This document shows positions 11,624 through 33,816 of a stretch of DNA of 64,000 nucleotides, in pieces (position 1 is the stretch's first letter; each line of letters begins with the position of its first letter). Position numbers and translations under genes: made by a program. The notes under the pieces are model-generated. The model was not told the origin of the DNA, did no database searches, and saw only the letters and a program-made list of their open reading frames with translations. The stretch is from Methanomassiliicoccaceae archaeon. GTDB taxonomy: Archaea; Thermoplasmatota; Thermoplasmata; Methanomassiliicoccales; Methanomassiliicoccaceae. The stretch covers positions 896,001-960,000 of the forward strand of contig JAXGZN010000001.1 of assembly GCA_040776945.1 (NCBI GenBank), read 5' to 3'.

Positions 11624-12637
11624 TCATGCCGGGTAGGCCGGGACACATACCACCTTGAACCCGCCATACGCGTCATTATTGGAAATAAGGCCGCAGCACA
11701 CGTAGCCGCTGCCAGCGAGCGGAAGGACCATGCTTCCGCTGAGGTCGGCACGCGTCTCGGGCAAGACCTCGAACCGCATGTTGCCCGACCACCACGGGAC
11801 GTTCAGGAGGACGATCCTAATGATGTCCCAGGCCAGGACCTCCTCTCCGGTGGCCAAGGGAGGAGGCAGCATATCGCCGGCGACCAGAAGGAGCGAACCA
11901 TTACCAAGGGCGATGACACCGGCCGTGGCCAAGGGCTCGCCTCGGTCGAACTCGTACCCTATGGACCTGCCGCCTTCCGCCTCCAGGTCGCCAAGACGGA
12001 ACAGCGAGGACGGCGCAACATATCTCAGCCCAAGAGCTTTGGCCATGGGCGTGGCGCTCACCCCCGCTCCACCGTCGTATTCCGCCTCCATGAAGTCGAT
12101 GCTCATCGTAGCGTTAGGCCGCCCGGAATCGGTCGAGGAGCGCACAAAGGGCACCGAGCCTGCACCGATGCCGACCCACAGCCCCCCACTCTTCACCCAT
12201 TCCAACGCCGGGTAGCTGTAGTAGTCGGGCAGGTATGCCCCTGGCCCCACCACCAAGGTTGCCTGGGGGTCGGAGAACACATCGGGCAGGCCGTCGGTGC
12301 CGATCACGGTGGCCTGGACGCTGCTGCCATATAAAGGCAGCTCGTTGTTGAAGTGGTCGGCCATGCGCTGCAGGCTCACCTTCACCCTGAAGTCCAGTCC
12401 TTCGTTGATGAGCACGTGAACAGGGCCCTGGTGGACCCTGCTTACTTCTAGGGCCACGGATGTCAAGTTCCTCATGTATCGGCCCCCGGCCACGCTATAT
12501 TCCATCGTCGCTTCGCCATCCTTCACCCCGATGGTGATGTCCATGCCGTCATTGACAGAGCGAGGGACGAAGACCATGCTGGACACGGCAAGGTAGGCCA
12601 CAGCAAGGGCCAGGGCCACCGCCAGCTTATTCCGCAC
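11624..12637 (-). CDS. Membrane-anchored extracytoplasmic hypothetical protein, coupled to the GT87-like gene
   Basis: Single N-terminal hydrophobic helix; WVKSGGLWVGIG resembles class-I glutamine-amidotransferase-like folds; GTG start overlaps the upstream stop by 11 bp. Confidence 0.7.
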   Translation of the reverse strand: MRNKLAVALALAVAYLAVSSMVFVPRSVNDGMDITIGVKDGEATMEYSVAGGRYMRNLTSVALEVSRVHQGPVHVLINEGLDFRVKVSLQRMADHFNNELPLYGSSVQATVIGTDGLPDVFSDPQATLVVGPGAYLPDYYSYPALEWVKSGGLWVGIGAGSVPFVRSSTDSGRPNATMSIDFMEAEYDGGAGVSATPMAKALGLRYVAPSSLFRLGDLEAEGGRSIGYEFDRGEPLATAGVIALGNGSLLLVAGDMLPPPLATGEEVLAWDIIRIVLLNVPWWSGNMRFEVLPETRADLSGSMVLPLAGSGYVCCGLISNNDAYGGFKVVCVPAYPA

Positions 12638-14048
12638 GGCCCCGCCTCCTTAACCGTTCCTGCAGCCGATATAACGGGTCGAAGCTCTGAGGGAGCAAGG
12701 CGGTGACCATGGCCGCCACCCCCATGAGCGTGGGCACGATCCTGCTTCCCTCGGAGCCCAGGCCGCTGGGGCTCAAGTAATATTCGACGACCGCCCGATC
12801 GATCGTCCCTATCGGGACCGCTCCAGTGAAAGCGGCCAGCGGATAGAAGAAGGCGAGGTAGGACTGGAGGCCGAGCCAGAATACCACTCCAGCGATGGAC
12901 ATCAAGGCCATCTTAAGCTCGAACCGGCCCTCGTAAATCGAGCAGAGGAGCACGAACGGCAGCGCCCATAGAATATAATGGGCGTGGGTGATGGACTGGA
13001 ACAGCAATAAAATGGTGAACACGGTCATGGAGCCGAACAGCAACCGTCTATCGTTCGATTCCTTGGAGCCCTTGAGCATCGCAAAGACGTAGATGAGGAT
13101 GAGGAACAGTATGGCGATGAGCAGGTAGTTCGATACAACCGTTACCCCGGAGACAGCGGAGTCGGGGAGCCTTCCACCGCCGAGCAGCGCGTTGACATTG
13201 CGCATCAGCCCCCACACGTTGACGCCCCCCATATCGGTAGTGCCCATCCTGCCGGTGAGGAAGACCATGATGGACGGATCAGCGGCGATCGTGATCAGGA
13301 TGCTGGAGACCCCTAGGGACCCCCCTGCGACGTAGCCCCCCAGGTTCCTCAGGTTGGGCAATATGCGGGTCGAGTTCCGCCATTCGGCGACCGCCAATCC
13401 GAACAGGTATGCGAAGTAGAACAGTCCGAGGTACATGGGGAACAGCTTGAACGCCACCCCCAGGCCGATGGCGAGACCTGCGCTGAAGAACTTCGCCTTG
13501 AGCATCGAGTACAGCGAGAGAACTGAGAACAGCACTGCCAGCACATCGAAATTGCCGTAAATGCTGGAGATGAAGATCACCAGCGGGTTCAAGAACCAAA
13601 GGATGAACACCCTTCGGGCAGTACCGGCATCCCTGACCATGGCGACAAATCGGTACAGGACCACGCCAGTTAGGTAATCCGCCAGTATCAATGGTGTCTT
13701 GAACGCCAGATTGAATGCTGGGTGAGTGACCACGGGATTTACCATTCCGGTGACCTGGCCGACGTAGACGAGGGAGGGCTGAAAGGAGGCCCACAATGAT
13801 GGGTCGACGAACAGTGAGAGGAGCCATGCAAAGGGAAGTGCTATGAAGACGAAGCCAGGAGGGTAGGAGTATGCCATGTGCCCGTAGGGCCCCAGTCCAG
13901 CCAAGGTATCCACCACTCCCTGGTAGAACGGGTACGTATCGTAGGTCCAGGATGTCCAGGGGGACATCGCCAATCGTATCCCAAATCCGATGATGACGAC
14001 CCATGCCAGTCGGCGGTCGGGGAATAGGGCGCCGAGGATATCCGCCAT
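12627..14048 (-). CDS. GT-C fold membrane glycosyltransferase, GT87/PIG-M-like
   Basis: Polytopic; first-loop acidic WTYD, YSYPP, FKTPLILAD, LWFLNPLVIFISSIYGNFD, AFKLFP and Y-x-L-W motifs. Confidence 0.8.
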   Translation of the reverse strand: MADILGALFPDRRLAWVVIIGFGIRLAMSPWTSWTYDTYPFYQGVVDTLAGLGPYGHMAYSYPPGFVFIALPFAWLLSLFVDPSLWASFQPSLVYVGQVTGMVNPVVTHPAFNLAFKTPLILADYLTGVVLYRFVAMVRDAGTARRVFILWFLNPLVIFISSIYGNFDVLAVLFSVLSLYSMLKAKFFSAGLAIGLGVAFKLFPMYLGLFYFAYLFGLAVAEWRNSTRILPNLRNLGGYVAGGSLGVSSILITIAADPSIMVFLTGRMGTTDMGGVNVWGLMRNVNALLGGGRLPDSAVSGVTVVSNYLLIAILFLILIYVFAMLKGSKESNDRRLLFGSMTVFTILLLFQSITHAHYILWALPFVLLCSIYEGRFELKMALMSIAGVVFWLGLQSYLAFFYPLAAFTGAVPIGTIDRAVVEYYLSPSGLGSEGSRIVPTLMGVAAMVTALLPQSFDPLYRLQERLRRRGRAE

Positions 14049-14142
14049 TCGGCCCCTCGTGTTGATGCTAGACAGGTGAAGACCGTCCTTTCCCCCTCAA
14101 CTGCCCGAAGGATAGATATATGAAACGGTTCCCGGCCGTCCC

Positions 14143-14970
14143 TCAGGTCAGAACGATGATGACGCCCAACAGCGCCACCAAGGTGAGGAGGGCCACCTGA
14201 CCGGAGCGGTTGAGGAACACGCGATCAGCGACGTAGGCCGCTCCCTTACCTAGCGTGCCGCACTGTCTCAAGATAGATGTTATGATGGTCGGAGAAAGTT
14301 TCGATGCCCCGCTGGCACGGTCCCCGAACAAATAGGGGATCTCCCTCACTGAGGTGCTTCGGGGAGCGAACTTGAGGAGGTCGAACAGCACCTTGAACCC
14401 CCTCCTCTCGAACTCGCCGCCATGCGTAGATGCGATCTCCTGGCACTCGCCAGTCCTCGCCCCGAAGAGGCCGCTCATGATGTCCCCCGGGTGAGGTCGG
14501 CGATGAGCGCGCAAATAGGTGTGGGCCAGGAACTGGGCCGCATCCGAGGAGAGACGTCTTCTCCAGTTCAGGGCCTCCTTGTGCTGCCTCCTTCCTACGA
14601 CCATATCAGCTCCACCCTCAAGGGCGGACATGATGTCTGCTAGGACCTCAGGAGGGTGCTGGAAGTCGGCATCCATCACTATGAAGTACGGTGTAGTGAC
14701 ACGGCCGATGCCTTCCATCACCGCCGCAGTAAGCCCGCGGTCCTCTGGGGCCCTGACAAAGAGACGGACAGCACGTTCCCGGGCCGCGATCGAGGAGACG
14801 ACGTCGATCGTCCCGTCCCGGGAATTGTCGTCCATGACCAATACTTGGATTCCAGGATAAAGTGCGAGAAGGCGCGCTATCATTCTTTCTATGTTGCAGA
14901 CCTCGTCGTAGGTCGGGATGATCACCGAGAAAAGGGAGTTTTGGGCTGGCCGTGCAACCAACGGAACCAC
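14143..14970 (-). CDS. GT2 polyprenol/dolichol-phosphate-mannose synthase-like enzyme with C-terminal TM helix
   Basis: IIPTYDE, MDDNSRDGT, RGLTAAVMEG, MDADFQHPPE, DIMSGLF, GFKVL, F.DR..G.SKL. Confidence 0.88.
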   Translation of the reverse strand: MVPLVARPAQNSLFSVIIPTYDEVCNIERMIARLLALYPGIQVLVMDDNSRDGTIDVVSSIAARERAVRLFVRAPEDRGLTAAVMEGIGRVTTPYFIVMDADFQHPPEVLADIMSALEGGADMVVGRRQHKEALNWRRRLSSDAAQFLAHTYLRAHRRPHPGDIMSGLFGARTGECQEIASTHGGEFERRGFKVLFDLLKFAPRSTSVREIPYLFGDRASGASKLSPTIITSILRQCGTLGKGAAYVADRVFLNRSGQVALLTLVALLGVIIVLT

Positions 14971-15207
14971 CTTCCTGACCTTTACAGATTGTCGTTATAT
15001 ATCCTTTTCCATAATTTTCGGGGACATTTTTCTCACTGGCCCATACTGCTGGCGCTTCTATCTCTATTCGTTCGTACTGAATGATTGTCTCGCAATGGAG
15101 ATAATACTATCTCATTTGATAATCATTTGAGTGGGATCGGAATCGAACCAGGTCGGTCGGGAAGCATTATCTATGGCGCATACTTTGCAAGGCTCCAGGT
15201 GGTACGT

Positions 15208-16278
15208 GTGCGGGTCGCGGTCCTGTGCCGGAAGCTCGATGGGAAGCCTACAAACGGTTTCGAACGGTACTCACACAATCTGGTCTCCGGCCTGAGGGAA
15301 GGGGGCTTGCCCCCCTTGCTCCCGAACCAGGAGGCCGCTCTAGCTGTAAGGCCGTCGGGGTCCCTGATCAGCCCTCCGTTCTATGACATCCTGTTCCCCT
15401 TATGGCAGCTCGTAAGGGGACGCATGAGGGCGGACATATATCACGCGGTGACCGACTCCCAAGCCATCATATTTCCATGGCTGAAGGGGAAGAAGGTGGT
15501 AACTATGCACCATGTGGACAAGACCCCTCCAGACTCGATACCCGAGGCGGTCTTCCGGGCTTTTTATCATCTAGGCACCAAGATGGCCCTGCGTCAGGCC
15601 GACAGGCTGATCTGCATATCCTCTCAGACCAAGAAGGAGGTCATGGAATCGTACAAGGTTCCCGAGGACAAGATAGTCCTGGTCTCTCAAGCGATCCCCG
15701 GGTCCTTTCGACCAATGCCCGAGGTGCCCAAGGAAGGGACCGTAGGTTATATAGGGGCGTTGAAGAAAAGAAAGAACGTCGAGCTTCTTGTCCACGCCTT
15801 TGCCATATATTCAAGGAGGCCGGGAGCTGCCCCGCTAAGGCTGAACATCTATGGAGGTGGAACCGACCTTCCTTATCTAAAGGCCCTCGCATCGGAACTG
15901 GGTGTGTCAGACATCGTGGACTTTAGAGGTCCGATCGAGGAAGAGCTTCTCGTCAAGACCTATAACTCGTTCTCGCTCTTCGTCCTGCCGAGCCTACAAG
16001 AGGGGTTCGGGTTCCCGATAATAGAGGCCCAGGCCTGCGGCGTACCGGTACTCACGTTGAGAGGCGCCCTTATCCCGGAGGAGGTGGCCAGGTTCACCAT
16101 CAAGTGTTCTGACGAAGAGGACATGGCCGAGCAGATGGACAGGCTGATGAAGGACAAAGGGCTTCGAGAAAGAACAATATCGGACGGCATAAGGCACGCG
16201 GCCGAGTTCTCGATAGAGGAGATGGGCCTGCGGACCAGGTCAGTATACGAATCGCTCTATGGCCAAGGGAGGTCCTGA
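15208..16278 (+). CDS. GT4 glycosyltransferase
   Basis: GTG 15208 after SD AGGTGG (MRVAVLC); YIGAL..RKNV, FVLPSLQEGFGFPIIEAQACGVPV (EX7E). Confidence 0.9.
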   Translation: MRVAVLCRKLDGKPTNGFERYSHNLVSGLREGGLPPLLPNQEAALAVRPSGSLISPPFYDILFPLWQLVRGRMRADIYHAVTDSQAIIFPWLKGKKVVTMHHVDKTPPDSIPEAVFRAFYHLGTKMALRQADRLICISSQTKKEVMESYKVPEDKIVLVSQAIPGSFRPMPEVPKEGTVGYIGALKKRKNVELLVHAFAIYSRRPGAAPLRLNIYGGGTDLPYLKALASELGVSDIVDFRGPIEEELLVKTYNSFSLFVLPSLQEGFGFPIIEAQACGVPVLTLRGALIPEEVARFTIKCSDEEDMAEQMDRLMKDKGLRERTISDGIRHAAEFSIEEMGLRTRSVYESLYGQGRS

Positions 16279-17159
16279 TCGGACGTCGCAGCGATGATGT
16301 TCGAAGGCCGGCCTTTGAGAGGTCGGGACGCATAGGCCCTGTGGCGGTTATAGATGTCAACGGTCTCCAAGTAGATGCTCTTCACCGACCGGAAACCTAT
16401 GCGGCCTCCCAAGGGGCGGCTGAAATCAAGCTCGATAGGCGCTTCAACGATCTTGAACCCATCAGCATCGGCGTTGACCAACAGCTCGAGGTCAAAGGCG
16501 TAGCGGTTGACCTTGCTCTTGGAGATCTCCCTATCGATGACCTCGCGCTTCACCAGCTTGAACCCAGGTTGGGTGTCAGTTAGCCGCAAACCGAACAGGG
16601 TCCTGACCATTATATGATACCCAAAGCTCAACAGCTTCCTCTTAAGGGGGTAGAACACCTTGGACTCTGGATGCCTCTTGGAACCTATCACCATGTCCGC
16701 CCCGGTGCTTTCCATGACGCTGATGAACGTCGAGGCATGTCGAGGATGTATCTCGAGGTCCGCGTCCATGAACATGATAAGGTCGCCTCTGGCCCTCAAG
16801 GCCCCAACCCTCAGAGCGTTCCCCTTGCCTACGTTCTTGCTGTAGGTGACAGGAACGATCTCGGGGTGAGCGACCGCCAGCTTCATCAGCTCAGTTGAGG
16901 TATGATCGCTGGACCCATCGTTCACCGCGATTATCTCGAACGGGCGATTAAGTTCGGAGAGGGTGGTCACACACTCCTCCAGATTCTTGTATATGCGCTC
17001 TCCTTCGTTATAGCAAGGAACTATGACCGACAGAAAGTTGCGATATCGGCGGCGGTCCCTTGCGATGGGCACGTGCATAGCGTTGGATGGAACTGCAAGA
17101 AAAATCTTCTGTTCCGTTGAAATGGCGTCATGTTCCATTATCATATATGAAACGTCCAT
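16257..17159 (-). CDS. GT2 dolichyl-phosphate hexose synthase-like glycosyltransferase
   Basis: VIVPCYNE, VNDGSSDHT, NVGKGNAL, FMDADL, GSKRHPES, DTQPGFK, YAFDLELL. Start uncertain. Confidence 0.88.
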   Translation of the reverse strand: MDVSYMIMEHDAISTEQKIFLAVPSNAMHVPIARDRRRYRNFLSVIVPCYNEGERIYKNLEECVTTLSELNRPFEIIAVNDGSSDHTSTELMKLAVAHPEIVPVTYSKNVGKGNALRVGALRARGDLIMFMDADLEIHPRHASTFISVMESTGADMVIGSKRHPESKVFYPLKRKLLSFGYHIMVRTLFGLRLTDTQPGFKLVKREVIDREISKSKVNRYAFDLELLVNADADGFKIVEAPIELDFSRPLGGRIGFRSVKSIYLETVDIYNRHRAYASRPLKGRPSNIIAATSDQDLPWP

Positions 17160-17253
17160 CGAATTGTCCGATTTTAGATACCTATAGGTTTAATGACTTA
17201 AAGTTTATGTCTACCATTATAAATCAATGATTTCATTAAGAAGACGCTCCCTC

Positions 17254-18318
17254 TCATCGGAGCACCTTTTCGAACTCAGCAGCACTGGCATCCCAATCAA
17301 ATCTCCTTGACCACTTCAATGCGTTCTCGCTCAGCTCCGTCCTGAGGCGTCCATCGCATATCAATCGCTCCATCTCCCTTGCCATGGCGAGGGGGGCGGT
17401 CCCTGATAGAAGGCCATTGTGGCCGTTCTGTATGGAGTCCCTGAGCCCGGGAATGTCGTAGCCCACGGCAGGTGTTCCGACGGCGTTGGAGTCGGTCACA
17501 ACCTGCCCCCAACCTTCTCGGATACCCGGCACAGCGATGATCCACGACCTTGCCACGATCGCGTCCTTTGACGCCTTATCAAGGTATCCAGTGAACTCGA
17601 CGTCCGGATAGGCCTTTACCAGGTCGTTCCTGAGCTCACCATCGCCTATCACCGTCAGGCGCAGGTCAGGGTATCTCTGCTTCAGCAGTCGATATGCCTT
17701 TAACGCCTCCTCTGGCCTCTTCGTGCTCTTCAGGCGCCCGACCACCACCACGGAGGGATGTGCGGTCTTATCTGGCACCCGTTCCAGGACCTTCGTATTG
17801 ATACCGTTCGGCACGACCCGGACGTCTCTGAACCCAAGCGCGAGGAGGTCCTTCCTTGTCGATTCGGACACCGTCACCGTTAGGACATCACGATATCTCC
17901 TCAACCAACGGTCCTCAAGGAAGCGGTTCCCGACCCAGGCCAATGGGTATGGAAGCTCGTAGAACCAGAACTCCCGGGCAAGCTGGTGGATCAGGGCCAC
18001 CAGGCGCTCTCCCCGGTCCACGCAGCGTGGCATCATGAAAGGGACCGTGTTGATCTCATCAATGATCACGTCCCATCTCTCTTTCGAACCTTTGTAGAAG
18101 GCCCTGGCCTTGCGATACACACTGAACCGGTCACCATCCCGTACCACTCGGACGCCCTCGATGACCTCTTCTGGCAGGCATCCGGGGAAGGCGCTCGAAA
18201 AAACAGTGACCTCATGTCCTCTTTGGTGCAGTCTGCTCATTATCTGCTGAGTGTACCACTCTGCCCCACCGCCTGCTGGATTGCGTATATCGCGCCAATT
18301 GAAGCACAGAACCCTGAT
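17254..18318 (-). CDS. GT4 glycosyltransferase, probable non-canonical ATC start
   Basis: Frame is open 26 codons upstream of ATG 18240 and encodes the family N-terminus IRVLCFNWRDIRNPAGGGAE; REGWGQVVTDSNAVGTP...PGLRDS in the C-terminal domain. Confidence 0.88.
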   Translation of the reverse strand: MRVLCFNWRDIRNPAGGGAEWYTQQIMSRLHQRGHEVTVFSSAFPGCLPEEVIEGVRVVRDGDRFSVYRKARAFYKGSKERWDVIIDEINTVPFMMPRCVDRGERLVALIHQLAREFWFYELPYPLAWVGNRFLEDRWLRRYRDVLTVTVSESTRKDLLALGFRDVRVVPNGINTKVLERVPDKTAHPSVVVVGRLKSTKRPEEALKAYRLLKQRYPDLRLTVIGDGELRNDLVKAYPDVEFTGYLDKASKDAIVARSWIIAVPGIREGWGQVVTDSNAVGTPAVGYDIPGLRDSIQNGHNGLLSGTAPLAMAREMERLICDGRLRTELSENALKWSRRFDWDASAAEFEKVLR

Positions 18319-18552
18319 GAGCGCCCACCTTCGGGTCGGATTGGATTATGCACTATATGGTTTTCGGTCGCCCGGAGCTGTTCGTTAGACTTACCGGCCG
18401 TCATAGATCTCCTGAAGGTCCGTTCTCCATCTGCGGCCGGGGCCGCGGTGAGATATGATGCCATATTCGCCGCGCGGTCCTGCCCTTAAGTTGATATATG
18501 CCTACGCCAGTGGTCTCCTCTCGGAGGAACCGTCGCCAGGAGAGGTAATGCA

Positions 18553-19740
18553 TTGATCACGGTGATTGCATTAGGTCCTGTCGAGAGGAACTCCAACGGC
18601 TACAGCATCCGCATAGGCCACCTCATAGATGCTCTTCTCCGGCATGACAAGGTCACGCTGATGGAGTTCCATATAACCGAGCCCCGAGGGCCCGTGGAGA
18701 CCAAATATGCCCGGATCGAGTACGATGCGGTCTATCGGAGCCGCGGCGCGGGCGATATGCTATTCAGACTGCTCACCTTCAACCCGTTGGCCCAGATGAA
18801 GATGCAGATCATGACCCTCAAAGGCATCTGGGCCAACCGGGCGCTTATCCGTTCCAGTGACATGGTCTTCATCGAGGGAGCGCTCTTCCCCTTCGCCATC
18901 CTGATGTCCAAGTTCCTTGGCAAGAGGGTCGTCATGGACACCCATTGTGTCAACCTCAAGCTGGGCAGCGACTTCAAGGACCACAACCGCACCGCCTATG
19001 TCATGAGGTGCCTGACCTGGGGACCATTGGAGTACTTTGCCTACCGGCTCAGCGACAATATTATCTTCGTGTCGGACAACGAGGTCAGCTTCTCTGAGAG
19101 GACATTCCGCATGCCTAGGGACAAAGCCACGGTCATCCCGAACGTACTGGACATACCACCCCTTGAGGTCACCCCTGAAGAGATGGACGGGTTCAGGGAG
19201 AGGTATGGGCTGAAGGACAAGGTCGTCGCAACCTTCCTGGGCGACCTGACCTCTGTGCAGAACAAGGACTGCGTGGACCTCATCCTTGGCGAACTGGCCT
19301 CGGACCTGGAAAGGAGCAGGGAGGAACTGAGGTTCTTGATAGTGGGGAAAGGCGCGGAAGCATTCGACAACATCCCCAGCAATGTTGTTTTCACCGGCTA
19401 CCTCGATAAGATCGATCCCGCCATAGCGGTCACCGATGTGTTCGTGGCGCCCATGAGGGTCGGGGCCGGTACCAAGACCAAGGTATTGCTGTTCATGGGC
19501 TACCGGAAGCCCATTATGACGACCGAAGTAGGGATCGAGGGCATAGAGGTCCGAGGACGCGAGGACGTCATGGTGATCGGGGTCGAGGATTTTCCCAATG
19601 CTCTGAGGTCCTTCCAGCCCCGACCGAAGAGAGATGAGTCGATCTGCCCCATCAGCGGCGCAGGGTACTCGCCCGAAGTTATGAGCTCCAAGGTGGACGA
19701 GCTCTTGGAACGCATCTACCGGGAAGCGGGGAGCGCCTGA
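18553..19740 (+). CDS. GT4 glycosyltransferase
   Basis: TTG after SD GAGGT; NGYSIR, VIPN, APMRVGAGTKTKVL, TTEVGIEGI. Confidence 0.85.
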   Translation: MITVIALGPVERNSNGYSIRIGHLIDALLRHDKVTLMEFHITEPRGPVETKYARIEYDAVYRSRGAGDMLFRLLTFNPLAQMKMQIMTLKGIWANRALIRSSDMVFIEGALFPFAILMSKFLGKRVVMDTHCVNLKLGSDFKDHNRTAYVMRCLTWGPLEYFAYRLSDNIIFVSDNEVSFSERTFRMPRDKATVIPNVLDIPPLEVTPEEMDGFRERYGLKDKVVATFLGDLTSVQNKDCVDLILGELASDLERSREELRFLIVGKGAEAFDNIPSNVVFTGYLDKIDPAIAVTDVFVAPMRVGAGTKTKVLLFMGYRKPIMTTEVGIEGIEVRGREDVMVIGVEDFPNALRSFQPRPKRDESICPISGAGYSPEVMSSKVDELLERIYREAGSA

Positions 19741-19745
19741 TCGCC

Positions 19746-23330: not shown

Positions 23331-23369
23331 CCATGGAAGGGACAATGAGAATGGTGGCCGGTATCTGCA

Positions 23370-26549: not shown

Positions 26550-26645
26550 TTTTGGGACCTTCCTGATATGGCGGGGAGGTTCATTTAAACACTACTAATC
26601 GTGCGCGTCCGAGAGGAAGCGCCTATCTATGGAGGTTCCAGCGAT

Positions 26646-27461
26646 TCACTTTTGCCGACCTATCAGATAGCCGAGCTTGTAGGGAACCCCCTTCATCACC
26701 AGGAGGAGATTGGCCTTCAGCGAGATGAGGGGCATGCTCCGGTCAAACTTGCGGAACCTCTCCTTCTTTCCCACCAGTTCGCTGTAGCAGGCCGTCTCGT
26801 GCATGTACCGCACGTCCTTTCCATACTTGAAGTTCTTCCGCCACAGCTCGCTTAGGCGCTTGGGCTCGTGATGCCAAACCGTGTCCTTGACCAGTCCTAC
26901 ACGGTTGGAGAACTTGGAGGCCTCATAGAAGATAATGGCGTCCTCATAGGCATGCACCATCGGCATGCACTCCGGCCGTATGTTGTCAAAGGCCTTCCCC
27001 AGGAGCTCGCTCTTGTAGAACCGAGGGCACATGACCCCTGTTATGGAGTCGATGTACGACCCTACGTTCCTGTGCAGCAGCACTCGGTCGGCATCGTAGA
27101 GCCTCTCTATGAAGGTCTTGGGCTGGAGAGACCTCTCTTCCAGACACAGCATGTCATGATCGCCGCTCATTTGGAGGCAGCGCTCGAGAGTAGTGCGCTC
27201 CAGTACCTGGTCCGAATCCAGGATGAGATGGTAATCGCCCGGATTGTGCCTGAACCCTTCCATGCGCGCACCCAGGACCTTCCCCCTGTAGCTGATTATT
27301 TCGTCGGTGTACTCCTTGGCTATGTCAAGCGTCCCATCGGTAGAGAAACTGTCGACAATGGTTATTTGGAAATCCTTGAAGGTCTGCTCCCGGACAGACT
27401 CCAGCGTCAACCGCAGCGTATTAGCTGAATTGAGTGTGGGGATAGTGATGCAGACCTTCAT
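26646..27461 (-). CDS. GT2 glycosyltransferase
   Basis: ITIPTLNS, IVDSFSTDGT, AR..G, ILDSDQ. Confidence 0.88.
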   Translation of the reverse strand: MKVCITIPTLNSANTLRLTLESVREQTFKDFQITIVDSFSTDGTLDIAKEYTDEIISYRGKVLGARMEGFRHNPGDYHLILDSDQVLERTTLERCLQMSGDHDMLCLEERSLQPKTFIERLYDADRVLLHRNVGSYIDSITGVMCPRFYKSELLGKAFDNIRPECMPMVHAYEDAIIFYEASKFSNRVGLVKDTVWHHEPKRLSELWRKNFKYGKDVRYMHETACYSELVGKKERFRKFDRSMPLISLKANLLLVMKGVPYKLGYLIGRQK

Positions 27462-27712
27462 ATCCTCGCTCTTCGGTGCGAAGGCCTACTATATTTATAG
27501 AGTTATCTCAGCGGTGATGGCTACCAGCCTGATATAGAAAGTACGGCCTGCTGGAGGAGCTTCTTGGCCGTTCAGGGAGGACGCACATCTCGAGAACGGT
27601 CGAACGCGCCCGTCCCTCTGACCTCCCTCTCTAGGAGGCCGCCCATAGGGCCGAGGGTCTGCCAGCACCAGAATAACAAATCTTTATTATCGCTCGCCCT
27701 TCTCCCAGCATT

Positions 27713-30700
27713 ATGGGACGCCGCGCCTCAGTTGCCCGATTCCTAGCTCGCGTGGGGGGTACAGACCGGCGTTGGCATCTCCGAATCCTGCTGCTGCTTT
27801 CCGTTCTCACGGCGGTCGTGTTCATAGGTTACATCAACGGCCCGCTACCCACGGGCACCGACTCCGAAGGGCTGGTGATGACCGCGGAGATGGGGCTCAG
27901 GACCGGAGGGCTTTTTTCCAGCTGGGAGCCTTACTCGGCGATGGGCTTCCAGAACGATCCGCTCCCTTTGCCCGGTGCCATTTTCCTGGTATTTTCATGG
28001 CTTGGTGTACCGACCTACGACGTGTGCAAGCTGATAATGGCCTGCTCGTTCTGGCTGGCGGGGGCCTTAATGTACATATGTGCACACAGGATCTCCAAGA
28101 GCGTTCTGGGTGGCGCCTGTGCAGCGATCGTGTTCGCCTTCAACCAGGTGTTCCTCTCGCAGATCATGGAAGGTCATTACTTCTTTGCGATAGGGTATGC
28201 CCTTCTGCCAGCAATATTTCTACTGATGTACCTGTCCGTGGTAGAAGGGAACGAGCGTGCGACGGTCTTGCTGCCGGCGGCCTTCCTCGTCTACGGCGGG
28301 AGCGTCGCTCCCCACATGGTGCTGATACTCGCCATGTTCGTGATGGTCTTTACAGGGCTTTACTTCGCCTTGGACAGGAGGGCGCTGCACCGCCTCGCAT
28401 ATCCTGTCATCGGCCTCATCATCCTGGTCCTCCCCTCTGCCCTGGCCCGGTTCTCATACGGAACGAGCATCTACAACGCCTCCTATCGCCTGAGCGAGAC
28501 CCATATCTGGAGCAATACTGGCCTAGTGAACGCTCTGGCCGCCCGATCGACCGAGAACTCGCACCTCCGAGGAGCAGCGGTCCAAGGCTGGTTCCCTGTG
28601 GAGGGCCTAGGATATGCCATGGAGATCCTGGCCCTGCTCATCCCTCTACTTGCTTTTATTTCGCTTTACTATAAGAGCGACAGGTCCTTGAAGATCGCTC
28701 TCGCCGGGACAGCGCTGGTCATGCTGTTCTTTGCCATGGGGCCGAACCAATGGTTGTCGGGCCTGTTCGTATGGATGTTCAGGAACCTGCCCCTGTTGGA
28801 CAGCATCAGGGTATTCTCCAGGTTCGGCATGTTCCTGGGTCTCATCTACGCGATCTTGATGGCCATGCTGATCGCGGACCTAAAAGGCCGGTCCGTCGCC
28901 TTCCGCATACCGCGATGTCTGAAGATGAGCATCGGCAGGGCGGACAAGGCTGTCGCCATAGCCTCCATGGCGGTCATGCTGACCGCCTCATCAACGATGT
29001 TCGTCCAGGGCCCCAGCTCGTTCTCGTTGCCTGCATCGTACTCGGAGCCGTTCGAGGCAATATCGGCCATCGAAGGAGACTACCGCATACTGACCCTGCC
29101 ATACGGCACGGTGTACTATGAGGCCTGGTACCCCAGACTGGACGGGTACCCTGCCACCTTGACCGACGACCCAGGGACCTACAGCCAGTACTATACTGGA
29201 AAGGAGCTCGCCTACGGCGACCATGCCGAAGAGTACTGGACCGTATGGGGTTCCGCGATCTCCGGCAGGACCTATGGGTATCGGACTCTGCCATCCATCT
29301 TCGGCGACGTCTCCAGCGTCAAGTACGTGGTGAAGCAGGTCCACGCCGATGCGACAACCGCAGAGAGGTTCCACAACATGGATGGCATGCACGTCTACCA
29401 GGAGTTCCCGAAAAATTCCTCAATTCTCGAGAACGTCCATTATATGGACCGGGTTCACACGGCGGGGGCCCTCGTCCTGACCACGGGCGGCAGAGCAGAT
29501 ATGTTGACCTCTCTAGCAGTGGGTGCGGTGAACTTAAGGAGCGAGGATCTCGCATTGCTCGGCCAGATTGACGACGAGGCCACCAGACAATCTCTGTGGT
29601 CCGCTGCGAGCAGGGTGATAGTCCATGGGGGCGACCTGCTCGCGCTTCTTGCCGAAAATGGCCTCTGGGGCCCCGATCAACTGATAAGAGTGGATAAGTT
29701 CGCCGACCATACCTATGACGACAGCGACATGCACTGGATATCCTCTGACATGTGCATATTGAGCGGCACCGCGCTGCACCCCAGCGCGTTCACCCAGGGC
29801 GAAAACGAGCTCCGAGTGCCGTTTGACGTGACCGGCGGAACCTATGACGTCTATGTTCGGGCGAGGGCCGGGCCCGGCTCTGGCAACCTGACGGTGGCCG
29901 TCGAAGGCAACGAACCGATGCATGTGGATACCGACTCCCCGTTTCCAATGGAGAGGTGGTCCAAGGTTGGCACCTATGGCCTCGATGCTCCAAGAGCTAG
30001 CATCCTTCTCTCGAACGATGGCACCGGGTGGAGCAGCGTGGACGATATCCTGGTGGTCGAGAAGGGAGAGGTAGAGAGGAAGATATCTGAACTGTCCAGC
30101 ACCCTGTCGGCCAAATCGATCGCCCTCATCTATGGGCCAAAGGACCTTGCCCCATCATCCTATTGGGAGATATTGGAGGGCAAGGAGGGGAACGGATTGT
30201 TCTATAGCTCATCCTCCCCGGACCCTCATATAATCTTGAACCCCACCATCCCGGTGGGGGGCAACTGGACCATCACCCTGAGGCAGATCGAAGGCATGAC
30301 CTCCGCTGGCAATCCTTATATCGTGATCGATGGGGAGGAGATCGACGGCATTGATACGGGGAACGGCACGTTCGCCTTCAAGGCCATGATGGCCGAGGGC
30401 CCCAGATCGATAGAGGTCCATACGAGAAGCGCCTACTCGTTAGTGCTCGAAGGCTCCCATGAAGTGAACTATGGCGCATCATCAGATGTCCATGCGTCTT
30501 ACGTAAGGACCAGTCCCTGGCAGTACATAGTGATCGTGAACGCGAGCGAACCGACATTCCTGAAACTGTCCGAGAACTTCAACCCAAACTGGATGGTGCA
30601 TGGCGGAGATGGCAAGGTCTTCCACTACCGCTCTTCATCTCAGATCAATGGGTTCTATATCAGCGAGGCGGGCAACTACACGTTAACAATAACCTTCGAA

Positions 30701-30823
30701 TGGCAAGAGAGATATCAGATAAACCAACTGACGCACCTCGGGGCAACGGCCGGGGCGACGATCGCATTGGCTCTCTTTGTCCTACGGGGCCGCCGGAAGA
30801 GAGCAACGGGAGCACAGCAATAA
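27713..30823 (+). CDS. Large GT-C-type membrane protein (YfhO/AftD/PTPS-related-like), paralog 3
   Basis: PTGTD, WEPYSAMG, EGHY, IRVFSRF, LPASY, DYRILTLP, SVKYVV, CBM-like modules, ENFNPNW...INGF plus TM helix. Confidence 0.72.
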   Translation: MGRRASVARFLARVGGTDRRWHLRILLLLSVLTAVVFIGYINGPLPTGTDSEGLVMTAEMGLRTGGLFSSWEPYSAMGFQNDPLPLPGAIFLVFSWLGVPTYDVCKLIMACSFWLAGALMYICAHRISKSVLGGACAAIVFAFNQVFLSQIMEGHYFFAIGYALLPAIFLLMYLSVVEGNERATVLLPAAFLVYGGSVAPHMVLILAMFVMVFTGLYFALDRRALHRLAYPVIGLIILVLPSALARFSYGTSIYNASYRLSETHIWSNTGLVNALAARSTENSHLRGAAVQGWFPVEGLGYAMEILALLIPLLAFISLYYKSDRSLKIALAGTALVMLFFAMGPNQWLSGLFVWMFRNLPLLDSIRVFSRFGMFLGLIYAILMAMLIADLKGRSVAFRIPRCLKMSIGRADKAVAIASMAVMLTASSTMFVQGPSSFSLPASYSEPFEAISAIEGDYRILTLPYGTVYYEAWYPRLDGYPATLTDDPGTYSQYYTGKELAYGDHAEEYWTVWGSAISGRTYGYRTLPSIFGDVSSVKYVVKQVHADATTAERFHNMDGMHVYQEFPKNSSILENVHYMDRVHTAGALVLTTGGRADMLTSLAVGAVNLRSEDLALLGQIDDEATRQSLWSAASRVIVHGGDLLALLAENGLWGPDQLIRVDKFADHTYDDSDMHWISSDMCILSGTALHPSAFTQGENELRVPFDVTGGTYDVYVRARAGPGSGNLTVAVEGNEPMHVDTDSPFPMERWSKVGTYGLDAPRASILLSNDGTGWSSVDDILVVEKGEVERKISELSSTLSAKSIALIYGPKDLAPSSYWEILEGKEGNGLFYSSSSPDPHIILNPTIPVGGNWTITLRQIEGMTSAGNPYIVIDGEEIDGIDTGNGTFAFKAMMAEGPRSIEVHTRSAYSLVLEGSHEVNYGASSDVHASYVRTSPWQYIVIVNASEPTFLKLSENFNPNWMVHGGDGKVFHYRSSSQINGFYISEAGNYTLTITFEWQERYQINQLTHLGATAGATIALALFVLRGRRKRATGAQQ

Positions 30824-30846
30824 TATGTAGGTGCACGGAGCTGACA

Positions 30847-31737
30847 ATGAGGATGCCTGCCGTATCGATCGGGGTGTGCGCCTACAACGAGATGAGGAAC
30901 ATCACCAGATGCCTGGGCTCGATAGTCCCGCAAAAGCTTCATGGTTATGAGCTTGCAGAGGTCATCGTGGTGTCCAGCGGCAGCACCGATGGTACCGATG
31001 CGGTCGTGAGAGACTATGCCGAGAGCGAGCCCCTTGTCCGCCTGGTCCCGCAGCCCAGGCGCGAGGGCAAGAACTCCGCAGTGAACCTCTTCATGTCACA
31101 GGCAGTAGGGGACATCCTGGTCCTGGTGAACGCTGACAACGTGCTCGCCGAGGGCGCGCTGCAGAAGCTCCTTGAACCGTTCAACGATCCCCAGGTCGGG
31201 ATCGTCGGGGGACGCCCTGTGCCGGTGAACCCCCGGGATACCGTCCCGGGGTTCGCGGTGAACATGCTGTGGGACATGCACCACCGCCTCTCGCTACTCC
31301 ACCCCAAAATAGGCGAGCTCATCGCCTTCCGCAACATACGCGTGCAGCTCCCCACCGACCTGCAGTCGGACGAGGACATCATCCGGATGGAGGTGGAGAA
31401 GCTTGGCCTCCGTTCTGCGTATTCGCCCGAGGCCATCGTCCAGAACAAGGGGCCGGCGACGGTCAAGGACTTCATCAAGCAGCGCACCAGGGTAAACATA
31501 GGCGAGGGATATATGCACAGGAAGTTCAGCTACGACATCCCGACCCAAGACCTCCGGCTCCTGTTCCCAGCACTGCTTGACCTCCTCAAGGACGGCGCCT
31601 CCTCGCCCCACCTGATGGCCGCCGCGGTTCTCATGGAGGCCTTTTGCCGCGCCTATGCAAGGCTGTACGTCGCTCTGGACAAGGGGGACAAGATGATGTG
31701 GAGCCCCGTCGACTCGACGAAGAACCTGAGCAATTGA
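30847..31737 (+). CDS. GT2 glycosyltransferase (cellulose-synthase-superfamily-like)
   Basis: ATG 30847 after SD GGAG; VCAYNE, SGSTDGT, GKNSAVN, NADN, GELIAFR, SDED, KQRTR. Confidence 0.85.
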   Translation: MRMPAVSIGVCAYNEMRNITRCLGSIVPQKLHGYELAEVIVVSSGSTDGTDAVVRDYAESEPLVRLVPQPRREGKNSAVNLFMSQAVGDILVLVNADNVLAEGALQKLLEPFNDPQVGIVGGRPVPVNPRDTVPGFAVNMLWDMHHRLSLLHPKIGELIAFRNIRVQLPTDLQSDEDIIRMEVEKLGLRSAYSPEAIVQNKGPATVKDFIKQRTRVNIGEGYMHRKFSYDIPTQDLRLLFPALLDLLKDGASSPHLMAAAVLMEAFCRAYARLYVALDKGDKMMWSPVDSTKNLSN

Positions 31738-31754
31738 TCCTCAGGAACTTTAGG

Positions 31755-32795
31755 TCAATCCTCTCCCAGGACCGCCCGCACCGCCTTGTTGAAGTCCACG
31801 TCCTCTGTGACCTGGATGCACTTGCATCCCGCCTTCCTGCCCATCGCCACGTCGTTCTCACTGTCGCCTATGACGTACGATGACCGAAGGTCGATCCCAA
31901 GGTCGCGGACGGCCCTCTCCAGCATTCCCGTGGCAGGCTTGCGGCACCCGCAGCCCTCATCCGGCCTGTGCGGGCAGAAATATATCGCGTCCAACCTCGC
32001 TCCCTCATCTTGGAGGTCCATCCTGAGCTTATCATGGATGCGTTCCAACGTCTCAGCGTCAAAGTAGCCGCGACCGATTCCCGACTGATTGGTCACCAGG
32101 ACCGTTAGGTATCCGGCCTCGTTGAGCTTTCGGATCGATCCTCCAACGCCTGGGAACAGCCTCAGATCCTCCGGTCGGGAGCAGTACGGAACGTCCTGGG
32201 CGATAGTATCGTCCCGATCGATGAACACCGCCTTCCGGCCGAACAAGGCCTTCTCCACCAGCCCGCAGATTATGTGCCCGGCGCACATGTAGGCCTCCTG
32301 GATGCGCGGTGTGGCGGTGGACGGCACGATGAGCGGGTGGTCGGTAAGGTCCTTGATGCTTCCGCCTGGGCCGGAGAAGGACACCGTAACCAGTCCGAGC
32401 TCCCTCGCACGCTCAAGCGCCAGCACGACGTTCCTCGAGTTACCCGAGGTGCTCAGGCCAACGGCGACATCGCCCGGCCTTGCGCACGCTTCAAGCTGGC
32501 GCGCGAACACCTGATCGTACCCGTAATCGTTCCCTACGCCGGTGATGGACGGCAGCGACGACAGCGCCAACCCATTGAGCGCCGGCCGGTCCATCAGGTA
32601 CCGTCCGGCCAGCTCGGCGGCCAGATGTGAGGCGTCAGCGGCGCTACCTCCGTTGCCGAAGAAGATGACCTTCCCGCCCCTCCTCAGCGATGCGACCATG
32701 GCATCGGCGATGGCCTCTATCCGCTCAGGGTCAATGGCCGCGATTATCGATGCGGATTCCCTAAGCTCGCTCTCAATGAGAAGGGCCATCGTCAT
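31755..32795 (-). CDS. gmhA-gmhB: Fused phosphoheptose isomerase (GmhA) and heptose-1,7-bisphosphate phosphatase (GmhB)
   Basis: SIS domain GNGGSAADASH..AE, NDYG, STSGNS, RIQE...GH; HAD domain FIDRDDT, TNQSGI.RG, CPH.P...C.CRKP, IGD...D. Confidence 0.93.
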   Translation of the reverse strand: MTMALLIESELRESASIIAAIDPERIEAIADAMVASLRRGGKVIFFGNGGSAADASHLAAELAGRYLMDRPALNGLALSSLPSITGVGNDYGYDQVFARQLEACARPGDVAVGLSTSGNSRNVVLALERARELGLVTVSFSGPGGSIKDLTDHPLIVPSTATPRIQEAYMCAGHIICGLVEKALFGRKAVFIDRDDTIAQDVPYCSRPEDLRLFPGVGGSIRKLNEAGYLTVLVTNQSGIGRGYFDAETLERIHDKLRMDLQDEGARLDAIYFCPHRPDEGCGCRKPATGMLERAVRDLGIDLRSSYVIGDSENDVAMGRKAGCKCIQVTEDVDFNKAVRAVLGED

Positions 32796-33816
32796 ACCTC
32801 CAGGTCTGCAGCCCGTACTTGTCGAAGTTGTAAGTGGCGATGTCCACCCCTAGCTTCGTCAGCTCGTTGGCCACCCTGTGCTTGCGGTCATACTCGCAAA
32901 TGAAGAACATGAAGCCTCCGCCGCCCGCTCCCGAGATCTTCCCCCCGATGGCCCCGCTGGCCAGCGCCGCATCGTATATCTGGTCGATGCGCTCGTTGGA
33001 TATCTTCGATGTGAACTTCTTCTTGCTCTCCCAGGACTCGTTGAGCAGCTCTCCGAGATGACGGATCTCGCCCCGAAGCAAGGCATCCTTCATCTCCCTC
33101 GCCAGCCGCTTTGTGCGCTCCAGCGCATCCAGCACCTGCTCGTCCCGTTGAAGATATCCCCGTGTCTGGCTCTGGATGATGTTCGATGAGTCCCTTGTCT
33201 TGCCAGTATTGCCTAGGAGGAGCTGATAGTGAAGCTCGTTGAGGATGTCGCTCTTGATCCTAAGCGGCGTAACGATGGTATCGCTGGCCCTGAACTCCAT
33301 GAAGTTGAAGCCCCCGAAAACCGAGGCGTACTGGTCCTGCTTCCCTCCAGCGAGGCCCAGTTCCTTCCTCTCCAGCACATATGCCAGATTGGCGATGTCA
33401 TAGGGTGACATAGGCTCATTGAGCCACTCGACCATCGCTCCAATGATGGACACGATGACCGTGGACGACGAGCCCAGCCCGGACCCCGGAGGGGCATCGC
33501 AATGGAGGAACATGTCGAAGCCACGGTCAACCTCGAAGTGGTTCAGCACCGCCTTGATGAGATCGAGGTTCCCGTCATAGCCGAACATATCACCATTCGC
33601 CGTCCACTGCTCGACAACGCCATAATCCAGCGAACGGATGGTTATCTCGTTGTCCTTGCGGGGAGAGATGGTGCAATAGGCGAACCGGTCGATCGTCGAG
33701 TTTAGGACCGCGCCGCCCTGCTCGTCGCAATACGGAGGTACGTCGGTCCCACCCCCGGCAAAGCTGATGCGCAACGGCGCCTTGCTCCTTATCAGCTGCT
33801 TCCTCTCTCCCATCAT
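32773..33816 (-). CDS. hddA: D-glycero-alpha-D-manno-heptose-7-phosphate kinase (GHMP kinase)
   Basis: APLRISFAGGGTD, PPGSGLGSSS, GGKQDQY...FGGFNFMEF, GGKISGAGGGGF; start ATG 33816/33813 after SD GAAGGTG. Confidence 0.9.
   Translation of the reverse strand: MMGERKQLIRSKAPLRISFAGGGTDVPPYCDEQGGAVLNSTIDRFAYCTISPRKDNEITIRSLDYGVVEQWTANGDMFGYDGNLDLIKAVLNHFEVDRGFDMFLHCDAPPGSGLGSSSTVIVSIIGAMVEWLNEPMSPYDIANLAYVLERKELGLAGGKQDQYASVFGGFNFMEFRASDTIVTPLRIKSDILNELHYQLLLGNTGKTRDSSNIIQSQTRGYLQRDEQVLDALERTKRLAREMKDALLRGEIRHLGELLNESWESKKKFTSKISNERIDQIYDAALASGAIGGKISGAGGGGFMFFICEYDRKHRVANELTKLGVDIATYNFDKYGLQTWRYDDGPSH

Follow-up and report, generated by a model that had tools for sequence, protein, structure and literature searches.

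The stretch of DNA analysed here, hereafter called the window, comprises 64,000 nucleotides (C1:896001-960000) of the 2.17-Mb, 2-contig, 99.8%-complete genome (G000) of a Methanomassiliicoccaceae archaeon, whose nearest homologs with a name belong to Methanomassiliicoccus and to metagenome-assembled genomes of Methanomassiliicoccales. Between positions 11624 and 33948 it contains 14 contiguous genes of a putative surface-glycan island. The open reading frame (ORF) listing and the Pfam and NCBIfam scans confirm the inventory that an earlier reading of the sequence alone, the original prediction, had proposed for them: four glycosyltransferases (GTs) of family GT2, three of family GT4, four GT-C membrane proteins, a GmhA-GmhB fusion, an HddA-like kinase and one accessory protein. 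In order, they encode the accessory protein (337 amino acids), a GT-C protein of 473 amino acids, GT2a, GT4a, GT2b, GT4b, GT4c, BIG1194, BIG1059, GT2c, BIG1036, GT2d, the fusion protein (SIS plus HAD) and the GHMP-type kinase. The genes form seven apparent transcription units on alternating strands.

The three largest proteins, or giants, are BIG1194 (1194 amino acids, 19746..23330, forward strand), BIG1059 (1059 amino acids, 23370..26549, reverse strand) and BIG1036 (1036 amino acids, 27713..30823, forward strand). They are distant paralogs, 21–25% identical pairwise over most of their length. BIG1059 and BIG1194 share 23–25% identity (E 1e-24 for the amino-terminal part and 3e-18 for the carboxy-terminal part), while BIG1036 is 21–24% identical to the other two. 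All have the same architecture, with about 9–12 hydrophobic segments in the first ~440 residues, followed by a beta-rich external region of 550–700 residues and one carboxy-terminal transmembrane helix; in BIG1194 the scan places about 9 hydrophobic segments in residues 1–440, ahead of an external region of beta-sandwich type, resembling carbohydrate-binding modules (CBMs), and the carboxy-terminal helix. Each giant gene is co-oriented with the gene of one Leloir-type glycosyltransferase (GT4c with BIG1194, GT2c with BIG1059 and BIG1036 with GT2d).

Pfam and NCBIfam give nothing significant in any of the three giants, a phmmer search of the PDB sequences with BIG1194 alone gives no match at E ≤ 1, and with a profile of 9 sequences (A1) the AftD matches are non-significant (E 0.75). 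A profile of 88 sequences (A2) matches the structures 6w98 and 6wbx of mycobacterial AftD with an E-value of 2e-9, the alignment of profile positions 131–540 to chain residues 126–540 spanning the membrane module and the domain that follows it. Searched against a library of 5.8 billion proteins, the same profile matches bacterial AftD proteins bearing PF11847 (E 1e-32 to 1e-21) and YfhO proteins (PF09586; E 1e-15 to 1e-11). The AlphaFold2 (AF2) model of BIG1194 residues 1–700, made with the 88-sequence alignment, has a predicted local distance difference test score (pLDDT) of 85 and a predicted template-modelling score (pTM) of 0.88. When this model is compared with known structures using Foldseek, the top match is AftD (6w98_A, E 4e-7, template-modelling score, TM, 0.46); there are 25 matches at E ≤ 0.001, and all 31 listed rows at E ≤ 0.014 are GT-C enzymes or complexes containing one (AftD, OST/STT3, ArnT, AftA, DPY19, AglB, ALG12, PglB, ALG9 and EmbC). 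AftD is also first for the full-length model, over the whole length (E 4e-11), but that model, made from 9 sequences, is of low quality in the membrane region (pLDDT 56 on average), so the 88-sequence model of residues 1–700 is relied upon. In the Atlas feature search an AftD amino-terminal GT-C cluster comes up with a score of 0.97. The structure model is of BIG1194 only, BIG1059 and BIG1036 being tied to the GT-C fold by paralogy. Profile, fold and feature searches thus place the giants next to AftD and YfhO, and the predicted fold is that of a GT-C enzyme, the class to which the original prediction had assigned them; profile and fold tools were needed for this, because Pfam shows nothing significant there. 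The family is large: an exhaustive profile search of 1.84 billion 50%-identity clusters yields 7254 representatives at E ≤ 1e-3, of which 1139 remain when the limit is tightened to E ≤ 1e-30.

The acidic residue of the first external loop (D45 in BIG1194, D51 in BIG1059 and E59 in BIG1036) occupies a column that is Asp in 92% of the 88 family members. A second conserved feature is an FRxxxK motif, of which, in BIG1194 numbering, R369 is conserved in 97% and K373 in 80% of the members. At the conserved columns of the family, BIG1059 has D51, E274, R377 and K381, and BIG1036 has E59, R366 and R370. Both features align with the Asp and the FRTTNK sequence of AftD-type (PF11847-bearing) proteins, and in the alignment of A2 with AftD, by our residue count, the motif lysine falls on the chain residue corresponding to K361, which is essential in AftD (10.1101/2019.12.22.885152). 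The conserved first-loop acidic residue and the FRxxxK motif fit a role of the giants as transferases, for which the putative donor would be a lipid-phosphate-linked sugar.

The external regions of the giants appear to be CBM-like. CBM_35 is found below threshold in two giants, one of them BIG1059 (19.7 and 17.7 bits, where 28 are required), and profile searches weakly match (E 0.003–0.03) chains of cellulase B, beta-agarase and MiXBM, which we take to be of CBM6 type. When 32 of the 88 aligned proteins were scanned against Pfam, eight contained CBM_4_9, CBM_6, CBM_35, CBM_11 or BppA above the cut-offs. AftD (PF11847; PDB entries 6W98, 6WBX and 6WBY) also combines an amino-terminal GT-C module with a large external region, in its case made up of CBM-type beta-sandwiches, to which the external regions of the giants appear similar; it shares the conserved first-loop Asp and FRxxxK-type motif, and is the best match by profile, fold and features alike. 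However, identity in the structural alignments is only 10–14%, the host is archaeal and nothing points to an arabinofuranose donor. The giants have no match to PF11847 at E ≤ 0.01, and only one of the 32 scanned family members matches it, below threshold (19 against 26 bits). The hydropathy scan and the DSSP assignment of the model indicate a single carboxy-terminal transmembrane helix and no four-helix bundle, while AftD has 16 transmembrane helices and a carboxy-terminal four-helix bundle that binds acyl carrier protein (10.1101/2019.12.22.885152). By these sequence features, the giants are not AftD proper.

The fourth GT-C protein (473 amino acids, 12627..14048, reverse strand) is related to PIG-M, GT87 enzymes and PIG-U. 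A crude scan finds about 12 hydrophobic segments, several of them overlapping, and the first-loop Asp (D37) is invariant. Its Pfam match to PF05007 reaches 23.0 bits against a cut-off of 23.4, all matches to PIG-M, ALG6 and GT87 models are sub-threshold, and its homologs are annotated as PF05007, PF09594 or PF06728. A phmmer search matches glycosylphosphatidylinositol (GPI) mannosyltransferase 1 with an E-value of 4.6e-4; a profile of 20 sequences (A5) matches structures of this enzyme with an E-value of 5e-14 over about 250 residues. The protein is best described as a probable clan-level member of the PIG-M/GT50-like GT-C enzymes, and may work as a glycosyltransferase on the outer side of the membrane, with polyprenyl-phosphate-mannose as its donor.

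Immediately downstream, overlapping the GT-C gene by 11 nt, is the gene of the accessory protein (337 amino acids, 11624..12637, reverse strand), which consists of an amino-terminal transmembrane helix and an external domain. Together with GT2a the two genes are co-oriented in an apparent operon, of which GT2a appears to be the first gene. Among the seven congeneric Methanomassiliicoccus genomes with which the island was compared (the congeners), the accessory gene co-occurs with the GT-C gene in five, and also in another genome, G005. Pfam and NCBIfam scans assign the accessory protein to no family; its three nearest feature clusters in the Atlas are hypothetical-protein clusters, 100% archaeal, with Thermoplasmatota as the commonest phylum. 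A resemblance to GATase1-like domains in the Atlas is a weak fold likeness only (TM ≤ 0.53) and no function was assigned from it. When the complex of the two proteins is predicted, the interface score (ipSAE) is 0.83, against 0.03 for the best of three controls; in the calibration, 116 of the 157 solved complexes and 2 of the 215 mismatched pairs attain that mark, counts that hold only roughly here because our own alignments were used. Contacts agree to at least 91% between runs, and the pLDDT of the accessory protein is at least 83. In the predicted complex, the transmembrane helix of the accessory protein packs onto the helices of the GT-C protein, with the ectodomain resting on the first external loop, suggesting that the 473-residue protein binds the accessory protein.

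PIG-M pairs with PIG-X, and the predicted pairing of the 473-residue protein with a single-pass partner is similar. Further likenesses to PIG-M/Gpi14 (GT50) and to GT87 types such as PimE are the profile match, the Pfam families shared by the homologs and the first-loop Asp. The differences are that PF05007 stays just under its cut-off and that the partner has no detectable similarity to any family and carries its transmembrane helix at the amino-terminus. We know of no GPI pathway in this lineage.

Two of the four GT2 enzymes are probably of the type that synthesizes lipid-phosphate-sugars, as had been proposed. GT2a (14143..14970, reverse strand; PF00535, 100.7 bits) has one carboxy-terminal transmembrane helix (residues 257–275), and its best solved relative is the Pyrococcus dolichyl phosphate mannose (Dol-P-Man) synthase (5mlz, E 2.4e-28), aligned over residues 11–245, the whole catalytic domain; ArnC and GtrB follow. 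GT2b (16257..17159, reverse strand; PF00535, 102 bits), co-oriented with GT4b, is a second GT2 of putative polyprenyl-phosphate glycosyltransferase type and has no membrane anchor at the threshold used. Its solved relatives are Dol-P-Man synthase (DPMS; E 4e-15), ArnC (3.5e-14) and GtrB (4.4e-13), and for both proteins the top seven solved relatives are DPMS, ArnC and GtrB enzymes. NCBIfam equivalog models stay far below their cut-offs for both. Only about five loci in the genome contain genes of the GT2a/GT2b type.

The remaining five glycosyltransferases are of Leloir type. GT4a (15085..16278, forward strand) is a cytoplasmic, retaining-type enzyme by family (PF00534, 97 bits, and PF13439), the best NCBIfam model being MshA (90 against 462 bits), and GT4b (17254..18240, reverse strand; PF00534, 91 bits; PF13439, 57 bits) is likewise a predicted cytoplasmic enzyme. 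GT4c (18553..19740, forward strand; PF13692, 56 bits) lies directly upstream of BIG1194 with a gap of 5 nt and has orthologs in the congeners G029, G075 and G081 at 67–74% identity. GT2c (26646..27461, reverse strand; PF00535, 71 bits), upstream of BIG1059, is soluble-type, with no transmembrane segment. GT2d (30847..31737, forward strand), also soluble-type, matches PF00535 with 98 bits from residue 56; its ORF opens at 30700, and there are ATG codons at 30847 and 30853, both past the stop codon of BIG1036, so that the protein probably starts at one of these and not at 30700.

In four metatranscriptome runs, from four studies but one year and habitat, contigs cover positions 11600-31599 at no less than 99% identity, in 28–30 of 30 bins. 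Such contigs cannot show transcription, strand or level and are not used as evidence of expression. In the four libraries the contigs coinciding with GT2b (16257-17159) have a word depth of 10–46, against about 4–11 for the other listed contigs; this uneven representation is only a hint, as contig depth cannot rank genes.

At the right end of the island lie the heptose genes. The GmhA-GmhB fusion (31755..32795, reverse strand) combines a putative sedoheptulose-7-phosphate isomerase of the SIS family with a putative heptose-1,7-bisphosphate phosphatase of the HAD family. Its GmhA half (residues 33–181) scores 165.8 bits with TIGR00441, for which the cut-off is 209, and its GmhB half (residues 188–326) scores 162.8 bits with NF006506 against a cut-off of 178; HAD-IIIA models are matched above their cut-offs. 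The HddA-like GHMP sugar kinase (32773..33816, reverse strand) reaches 332 of 600 bits with NF049969 over residues 52–384 and is 82–87% identical in the congeners. Its ORF extends to 33948, but the protein likely starts at 33816, an ATG codon at which homology begins and which is the end coordinate originally given for the locus. Compared with the pathway to GDP-D-glycero-alpha-D-manno-heptose (GmhA, HddA, GmhB and HddC), three of the four activities are best-matched here and are adjacent; the island differs in that GmhA and GmhB are fused and score below the equivalog cut-offs, and in that the whole genome holds no protein attaining the HddC cut-off of 300 bits, the four nucleotidyltransferase paralogs scoring 83–109. 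The open-access papers and preprints searched contain nothing relevant on heptose pathways in archaea.

GT2d adjoins the GmhA-GmhB and HddA-like genes in all six congeners whose contig extends there. As a soluble GT2 that travels with the heptose genes, it is a simpler candidate for a heptosyltransferase than GT2a or GT2b. Of 101 genomes of the order, 67 have HddA-like genes and 12 have giants. In G005 a giant, GT2a, GT2b and the pair of PIG-M-like and accessory proteins are present; heptose genes are missing from the 35 kb fetched, and the rest of the genome has no HddA-like match either. A second, weaker HddA-like paralog, of about 150 bits, is located roughly 10 kb from a giant in two genomes belonging to another family of the order (G043:C2:158477-169806 and G065:C1:778275-789604).

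Searches for components of known archaeal and bacterial glycosylation systems place these elsewhere in the genome or do not find them, in keeping with the original statement that the locus has no aglB or Wzx gene. The only match of the STT3 model in the genome is at C1:630481-631749 (L001), about 265 kb from the island. This match to STT3/AglB is located inside an uninterrupted frame of 2154 amino acids, far longer than usual for AglB. No Wzx or MATE gene is present in the window, the four Wzx-like genes of the genome being all outside the island. GtrA (PF04138) and the AglH/WecA family (PF00953) have no match in the 99.8%-complete genome; therefore lipid-linked initiation and the flipping of Dol-P-sugars must use other protein families. 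Agl models score far below their cut-offs (AglJ 55 of 325 bits, Agl16 36 of 575 and AglG 27 of 440), as does the model for Dol-P-hexose transferase (31 of 375), and, with AglB so distant, the locus does not match a characterised agl cluster.

When the congeners are compared, the island is a hypervariable, surface-antigen-like locus between conserved flanks. The left flank (CDC48, ARMT1, a nucleotidyltransferase, an EamA gene and a gene for a protein of 157 amino acids) is common to all seven, and the right flank (GT2d, GmhA-GmhB, HddA, a solute-binding protein, an ABC transporter and an aminotransferase) is the same in the six whose contig extends that far. Three congeners (G029, G075 and G081) have all 14 genes in the same order, with protein identities of 46–88%. 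Orthologs of all three giants are found in three of the seven and the PIG-M-like module in five, while orthologs or paralogs of BIG1036 are present in all seven, at 29–63% identity. Two further congeners retain the left half and have different giants; in G054 and G069 the PIG-M-like module was not found in the stretches fetched, where giants and heptose genes are present. In the three congeners with the full gene order there is an extra 6-kb module for a CDP-3,6-dideoxyhexose, with RfbF, RfbG and RfbH above their cut-offs, which is not in this window. This insert (L014:8092-13884 in G029, and the same in G075 and G081) sits between the orthologs of GT4b and GT4c and encodes an SDR epimerase/dehydratase, a 151-residue protein without assignment, glucose-1-phosphate cytidylyltransferase, CDP-glucose 4,6-dehydratase, RfbH and a further GT2. 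It is an instance of a CDP-3,6-dideoxyhexose pathway in an archaeon.

In the phylum, the giant family has a patchy distribution, with matches in 25 of the 401 genomes, or 20 of the 161 genera, when an alignment of 40 rows (A3) is used and two candidates are scored per genome. Of ten distant loci, seven have a homolog of GT2a or GT2b within 10 kb of the giant, and two of the three others are contigs of 9 and 12.5 kb; a GT2b homolog is that close in five, and in four a GT4b homolog lies beside the GT2b homolog. G011 and G006 have GT2a and one giant only.

These observations are probably best explained if the 14 genes are a species-variable surface-glycan island of a Methanomassiliicoccus-like archaeon, acting on both membrane faces and using lipid-phosphate-sugar donors for extracytoplasmic extension. 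In the proposed pathway the GmhA-GmhB fusion and the HddA-like kinase would, by homology, make heptose-1-phosphate, which a neighbouring ManC-like nucleotidyltransferase may activate as GDP-heptose. The five Leloir-type enzymes GT4a, GT4b, GT4c, GT2c and GT2d would build a lipid-linked primer on the cytoplasmic face, to be transferred across the membrane by a flippase. GT2a and GT2b would each charge dolichyl phosphate with a hexose, probably mannose in the case of GT2a. Outside, the PIG-M-like heterodimer and the three giants would extend and branch the glycan from lipid-phosphate donors, each giant making its own linkage and holding the chain with its CBM-like domains. Heptose would most likely enter from cytoplasmic GDP-heptose rather than by way of a lipid-phosphate donor. 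As the product, a membrane-anchored polysaccharide (a lipoglycan or glycocalyx) is most likely, in a lineage without a described wall. This is the best guess because, for each of the four GT-C enzymes, the nearest relatives that have been characterised work on glycans that are lipid-anchored or polymeric, and because the Thermoplasmatales are reported to rely on lipoglycans and a glycocalyx (PMC12223506).

Several points weigh against this scheme. None of the equivalog models (HddA, GmhA, GmhB, Agl and DPMS-type) attains its cut-off. The formation of GDP-heptose rests on a generic nucleotidyltransferase, because no HddC reaches its cut-off, and the ManC-like enzyme concerned also flanks the G005 locus, where the 35 kb fetched hold no heptose genes. 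GtrA is absent from the genome and the Wzx-like genes are elsewhere, which leaves the scheme without a recognised flippase, and the initiating phosphoglycosyltransferase was not found, as PF00953 lacks a match genome-wide. The TM-scores of the Foldseek matches are modest, 0.46 at best. Residue 263 of BIG1194 is Pro in a column that is Glu in 50 and Asp in 10 of the 88 members (68% together), and which, by our residue count in the A2–AftD alignment, should correspond to E251, which is essential in AftD; confidence in the model is low at this position. The predicted pairing of the PIG-M-like and accessory proteins could partly reproduce a structure that the prediction program has learned, because a PIG-M complex has already been solved. 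Donor sugars, acceptor and product are all deduced from sequence, and the 14 genes, which fall into seven apparent transcription units, may contribute to several glycans.

One alternative, which we take seriously without favouring it, is protein glycosylation of the agl kind. A DPMS-type GT2 would start the glycan on dolichyl phosphate, as AglJ does, soluble glycosyltransferases would extend it, the distant AglB would transfer it to surface proteins, and the GT-C enzymes would add the final sugars on the outside from Dol-P-sugars, in the manner of AglD, AglR and AglS in Haloferax. A start on dolichyl phosphate by a DPMS-like GT2 is plausible because the genome, which has AglB, has no initiator of AglH/WecA type, and AglJ is the top NCBIfam match of GT2a. 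YfhO-type enzymes, relatives of the giants, include protein- and teichoic-acid-glycosylating ones. The Haloferax pathway is a direct archaeal precedent (PMC3871713). On the other hand, AglB is about 265 kb away, every Agl model is far below its cut-off, the closest characterised GT-C relatives (AftD and PIG-M) act on lipid-anchored or polymeric glycans, the multiple CBM-like domains suggest a polysaccharide acceptor, and four GT-C enzymes are many for the trimming of an N-glycan. Between a lipoglycan and a protein-linked glycan sequence alone cannot decide.

The island might instead be a mosaic of independent modules serving different glycans (GT2a with the PIG-M-like and accessory genes; GT4b with GT2b; three pairs of a Leloir glycosyltransferase and a giant; and the heptose genes), which seems rather doubtful. 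The seven transcription units on alternating strands are consistent with it, and so is the separation of modules in relatives: the fetched stretches of G054 and G069 hold giants and heptose genes and not the PIG-M-like module, and G011 and G006 combine GT2a with a single giant. Yet the order of the 14 genes is kept in three congeners at protein identities down to 46%, and glycan loci are typically modular while still yielding one polymer.

It is very unlikely that, as the original prediction ventured, heptose is carried on a lipid phosphate, a DPMS-type GT2 making lipid-phosphate-heptose from GDP-heptose and the GT-C enzymes polymerising it outside the membrane. Although the heptose genes are at the island edge in all six congeners with a visible edge, and the weaker HddA-like paralog is found about 10 kb from a giant in G043 and G065, this donor finds no support in the order-wide counts of HddA-like genes and giants (67 and 12 of 101), nor in G005, where the fetched stretch holds a giant, GT2a, GT2b and the PIG-M-like pair but lacks heptose genes. 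The best relative of GT2a is a mannose-specific synthase, no HddC in the genome reaches its cut-off, and the soluble GT2d is the simpler heptosyltransferase candidate. Least credible of all is that the giants are non-transferase envelope proteins, binding, anchoring or degrading glycans with a retained GT-C-like membrane domain: the external part does consist mostly of CBM-like beta-sandwich domains and one conserved column has no acidic residue in BIG1194, but all three giants retain the first-loop Asp/Glu and the FRxxxK motif, genes of the lipid-phosphate-sugar synthase type lie close to giants in seven of ten distant loci, and the structural neighbours are all active transferases.

The surface-glycan pathway proposed here has parallels in known systems. 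In the assembly of mycobacterial phosphatidylinositol mannosides, lipomannan and lipoarabinomannan (PIM/LM/LAM), cytoplasmic GT4 and GT2 enzymes build a lipid-linked primer, a DPMS-type synthase supplies lipid-phosphate-sugar and GT-C enzymes extend the glycan outside; as in the island, several paralogous GT-C enzymes in one pathway are fed by a lipid-phosphate-sugar. The comparison with LAM drawn in the original prediction is a fair description, because the closest characterised relatives, AftD, PIG-M/GT87-type mannosyltransferases and Dol-P-Man synthase, are players of lipoglycan and GPI assembly. A polyprenyl-phosphate GT2 beside a GT-C enzyme is also found in the GtrB/GtrA/Gtr*, CsbB/GtcA/YfhO, ArnC/ArnEF/ArnT and Haloferax AglD/AglR/AglS systems. 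Three-component systems, too, start from a lipid-linked primer made by cytoplasmic GT4/GT2 steps, after which a DPMS-type synthase supplies the lipid-phosphate-sugar and the GT-C enzyme extends the glycan outside (PMC11127046). In Haloferax, AglJ and AglD are DPMS-type GT2 enzymes (AglD being a Dol-P-Man synthase), and AglD, AglR and AglS act in synthesis and external transfer (PMC3871713), so the earlier remark that no precedent is known was overstated. Such systems diversify surface antigens between strains (PMC11127046, PMC3871713). The island differs from the three-component systems in that GtrA is absent from the genome, in having four GT-C enzymes and two synthases in place of one each, and in the GT-C enzymes themselves, which are 2–3 times larger and have CBM-like domains.

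The open-access papers and preprints searched hold no account of this locus, of archaeal AftD-like enzymes or of heptose synthesis in the order, in agreement with its being called undescribed. What appears to be new is a branch of the AftD/YfhO clade that is archaeal, escapes Pfam and is represented by three neighbouring paralogs, together with a PIG-M-like enzyme that has a new predicted partner and two putative lipid-phosphate-sugar synthases, in a variable island resembling O-antigen loci. Methanomassiliicoccales are methanogens of guts, digesters and sediments; to our knowledge their envelope chemistry is essentially undescribed and no wall polymer is known. For their glycocalyx, the island offers concrete candidate genes and a testable assembly logic. 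To the AftD/YfhO branch of GT-C enzymes it adds a large family, archaeal members included, that domain libraries miss, and it provides a PIG-M-like enzyme with a predicted partner subunit of a new kind. Tentatively, and going beyond what we would expect to be borne out in full, the main envelope polymer of Methanomassiliicoccus could be a LAM-like, heptose-bearing lipoglycan assembled outside by three AftD-like polymerases and the PIG-M-like/accessory heterodimer, with the AftD-like family forming a major unannotated GT-C clade (at least 1139 Pfam-invisible clusters at E ≤ 1e-30). If so, the variation of the island from species to species would set the surface type of the cell. As it varies between congeners like O-antigen loci do, the island may govern recognition by viruses, hosts or syntrophic partners.

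Three conserved genes precede the island, all on the forward strand. The first (8974..10050; PF00483, 177 bits) encodes a ManC-like sugar-1-phosphate nucleotidyltransferase with a left-handed beta-helix tail, for which the best NCBIfam match is mannose-1-phosphate guanylyltransferase (241 bits, cut-off 440) and which scores 92 of 300 bits with HddC. It flanks the island in five of the seven congeners and in G005, i.e. wherever the contig or the fetched stretch extends so far, and is a candidate for the formation of GDP-mannose and/or GDP-heptose. The second (10224..11135; PF00892, 134 bits) encodes an EamA/DMT-type 10-transmembrane transporter with about 10 hydrophobic segments. It is next to the island in related loci too, has a 49%-identical paralog on contig C2, and is only a speculative candidate for the flippase. 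The third (11101..11574) encodes a protein of 157 amino acids without a Pfam or NCBIfam match, orthologs of which are found in the same position in all seven congeners and in G005, at 40–64% identity.

The flanks of the window consist of typical archaeal housekeeping genes (ELP3-like, CDC48, an aIF5B-type GTPase and pyruvate:ferredoxin oxidoreductase). The island had been described as AT-rich, and this is real, but mild: GC content is 56.9% over 14000-31000, against a genome mean of 59.7% (standard deviation 2.3%), at the 8th percentile of 20-kb windows. An origin from a mobile element was considered and dropped, since the window contains no tRNA and the family scans of the flanks revealed nothing integrase-like. 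Two paralogous solute-binding genes of the SBP_bac_3 family (34059-36182) occupy the stretch of lowest GC content in the window (50.7–53.4%); the first has only 27–35% identity to anything in related loci, while the second has orthologs in congeners at 47–88%. Further along, an open frame of 476 amino acids without a family (40458-41888, reverse strand) lies antisense to the gene of the pyruvate:ferredoxin oxidoreductase alpha-subunit and is probably a spurious ORF of high-GC sequence.

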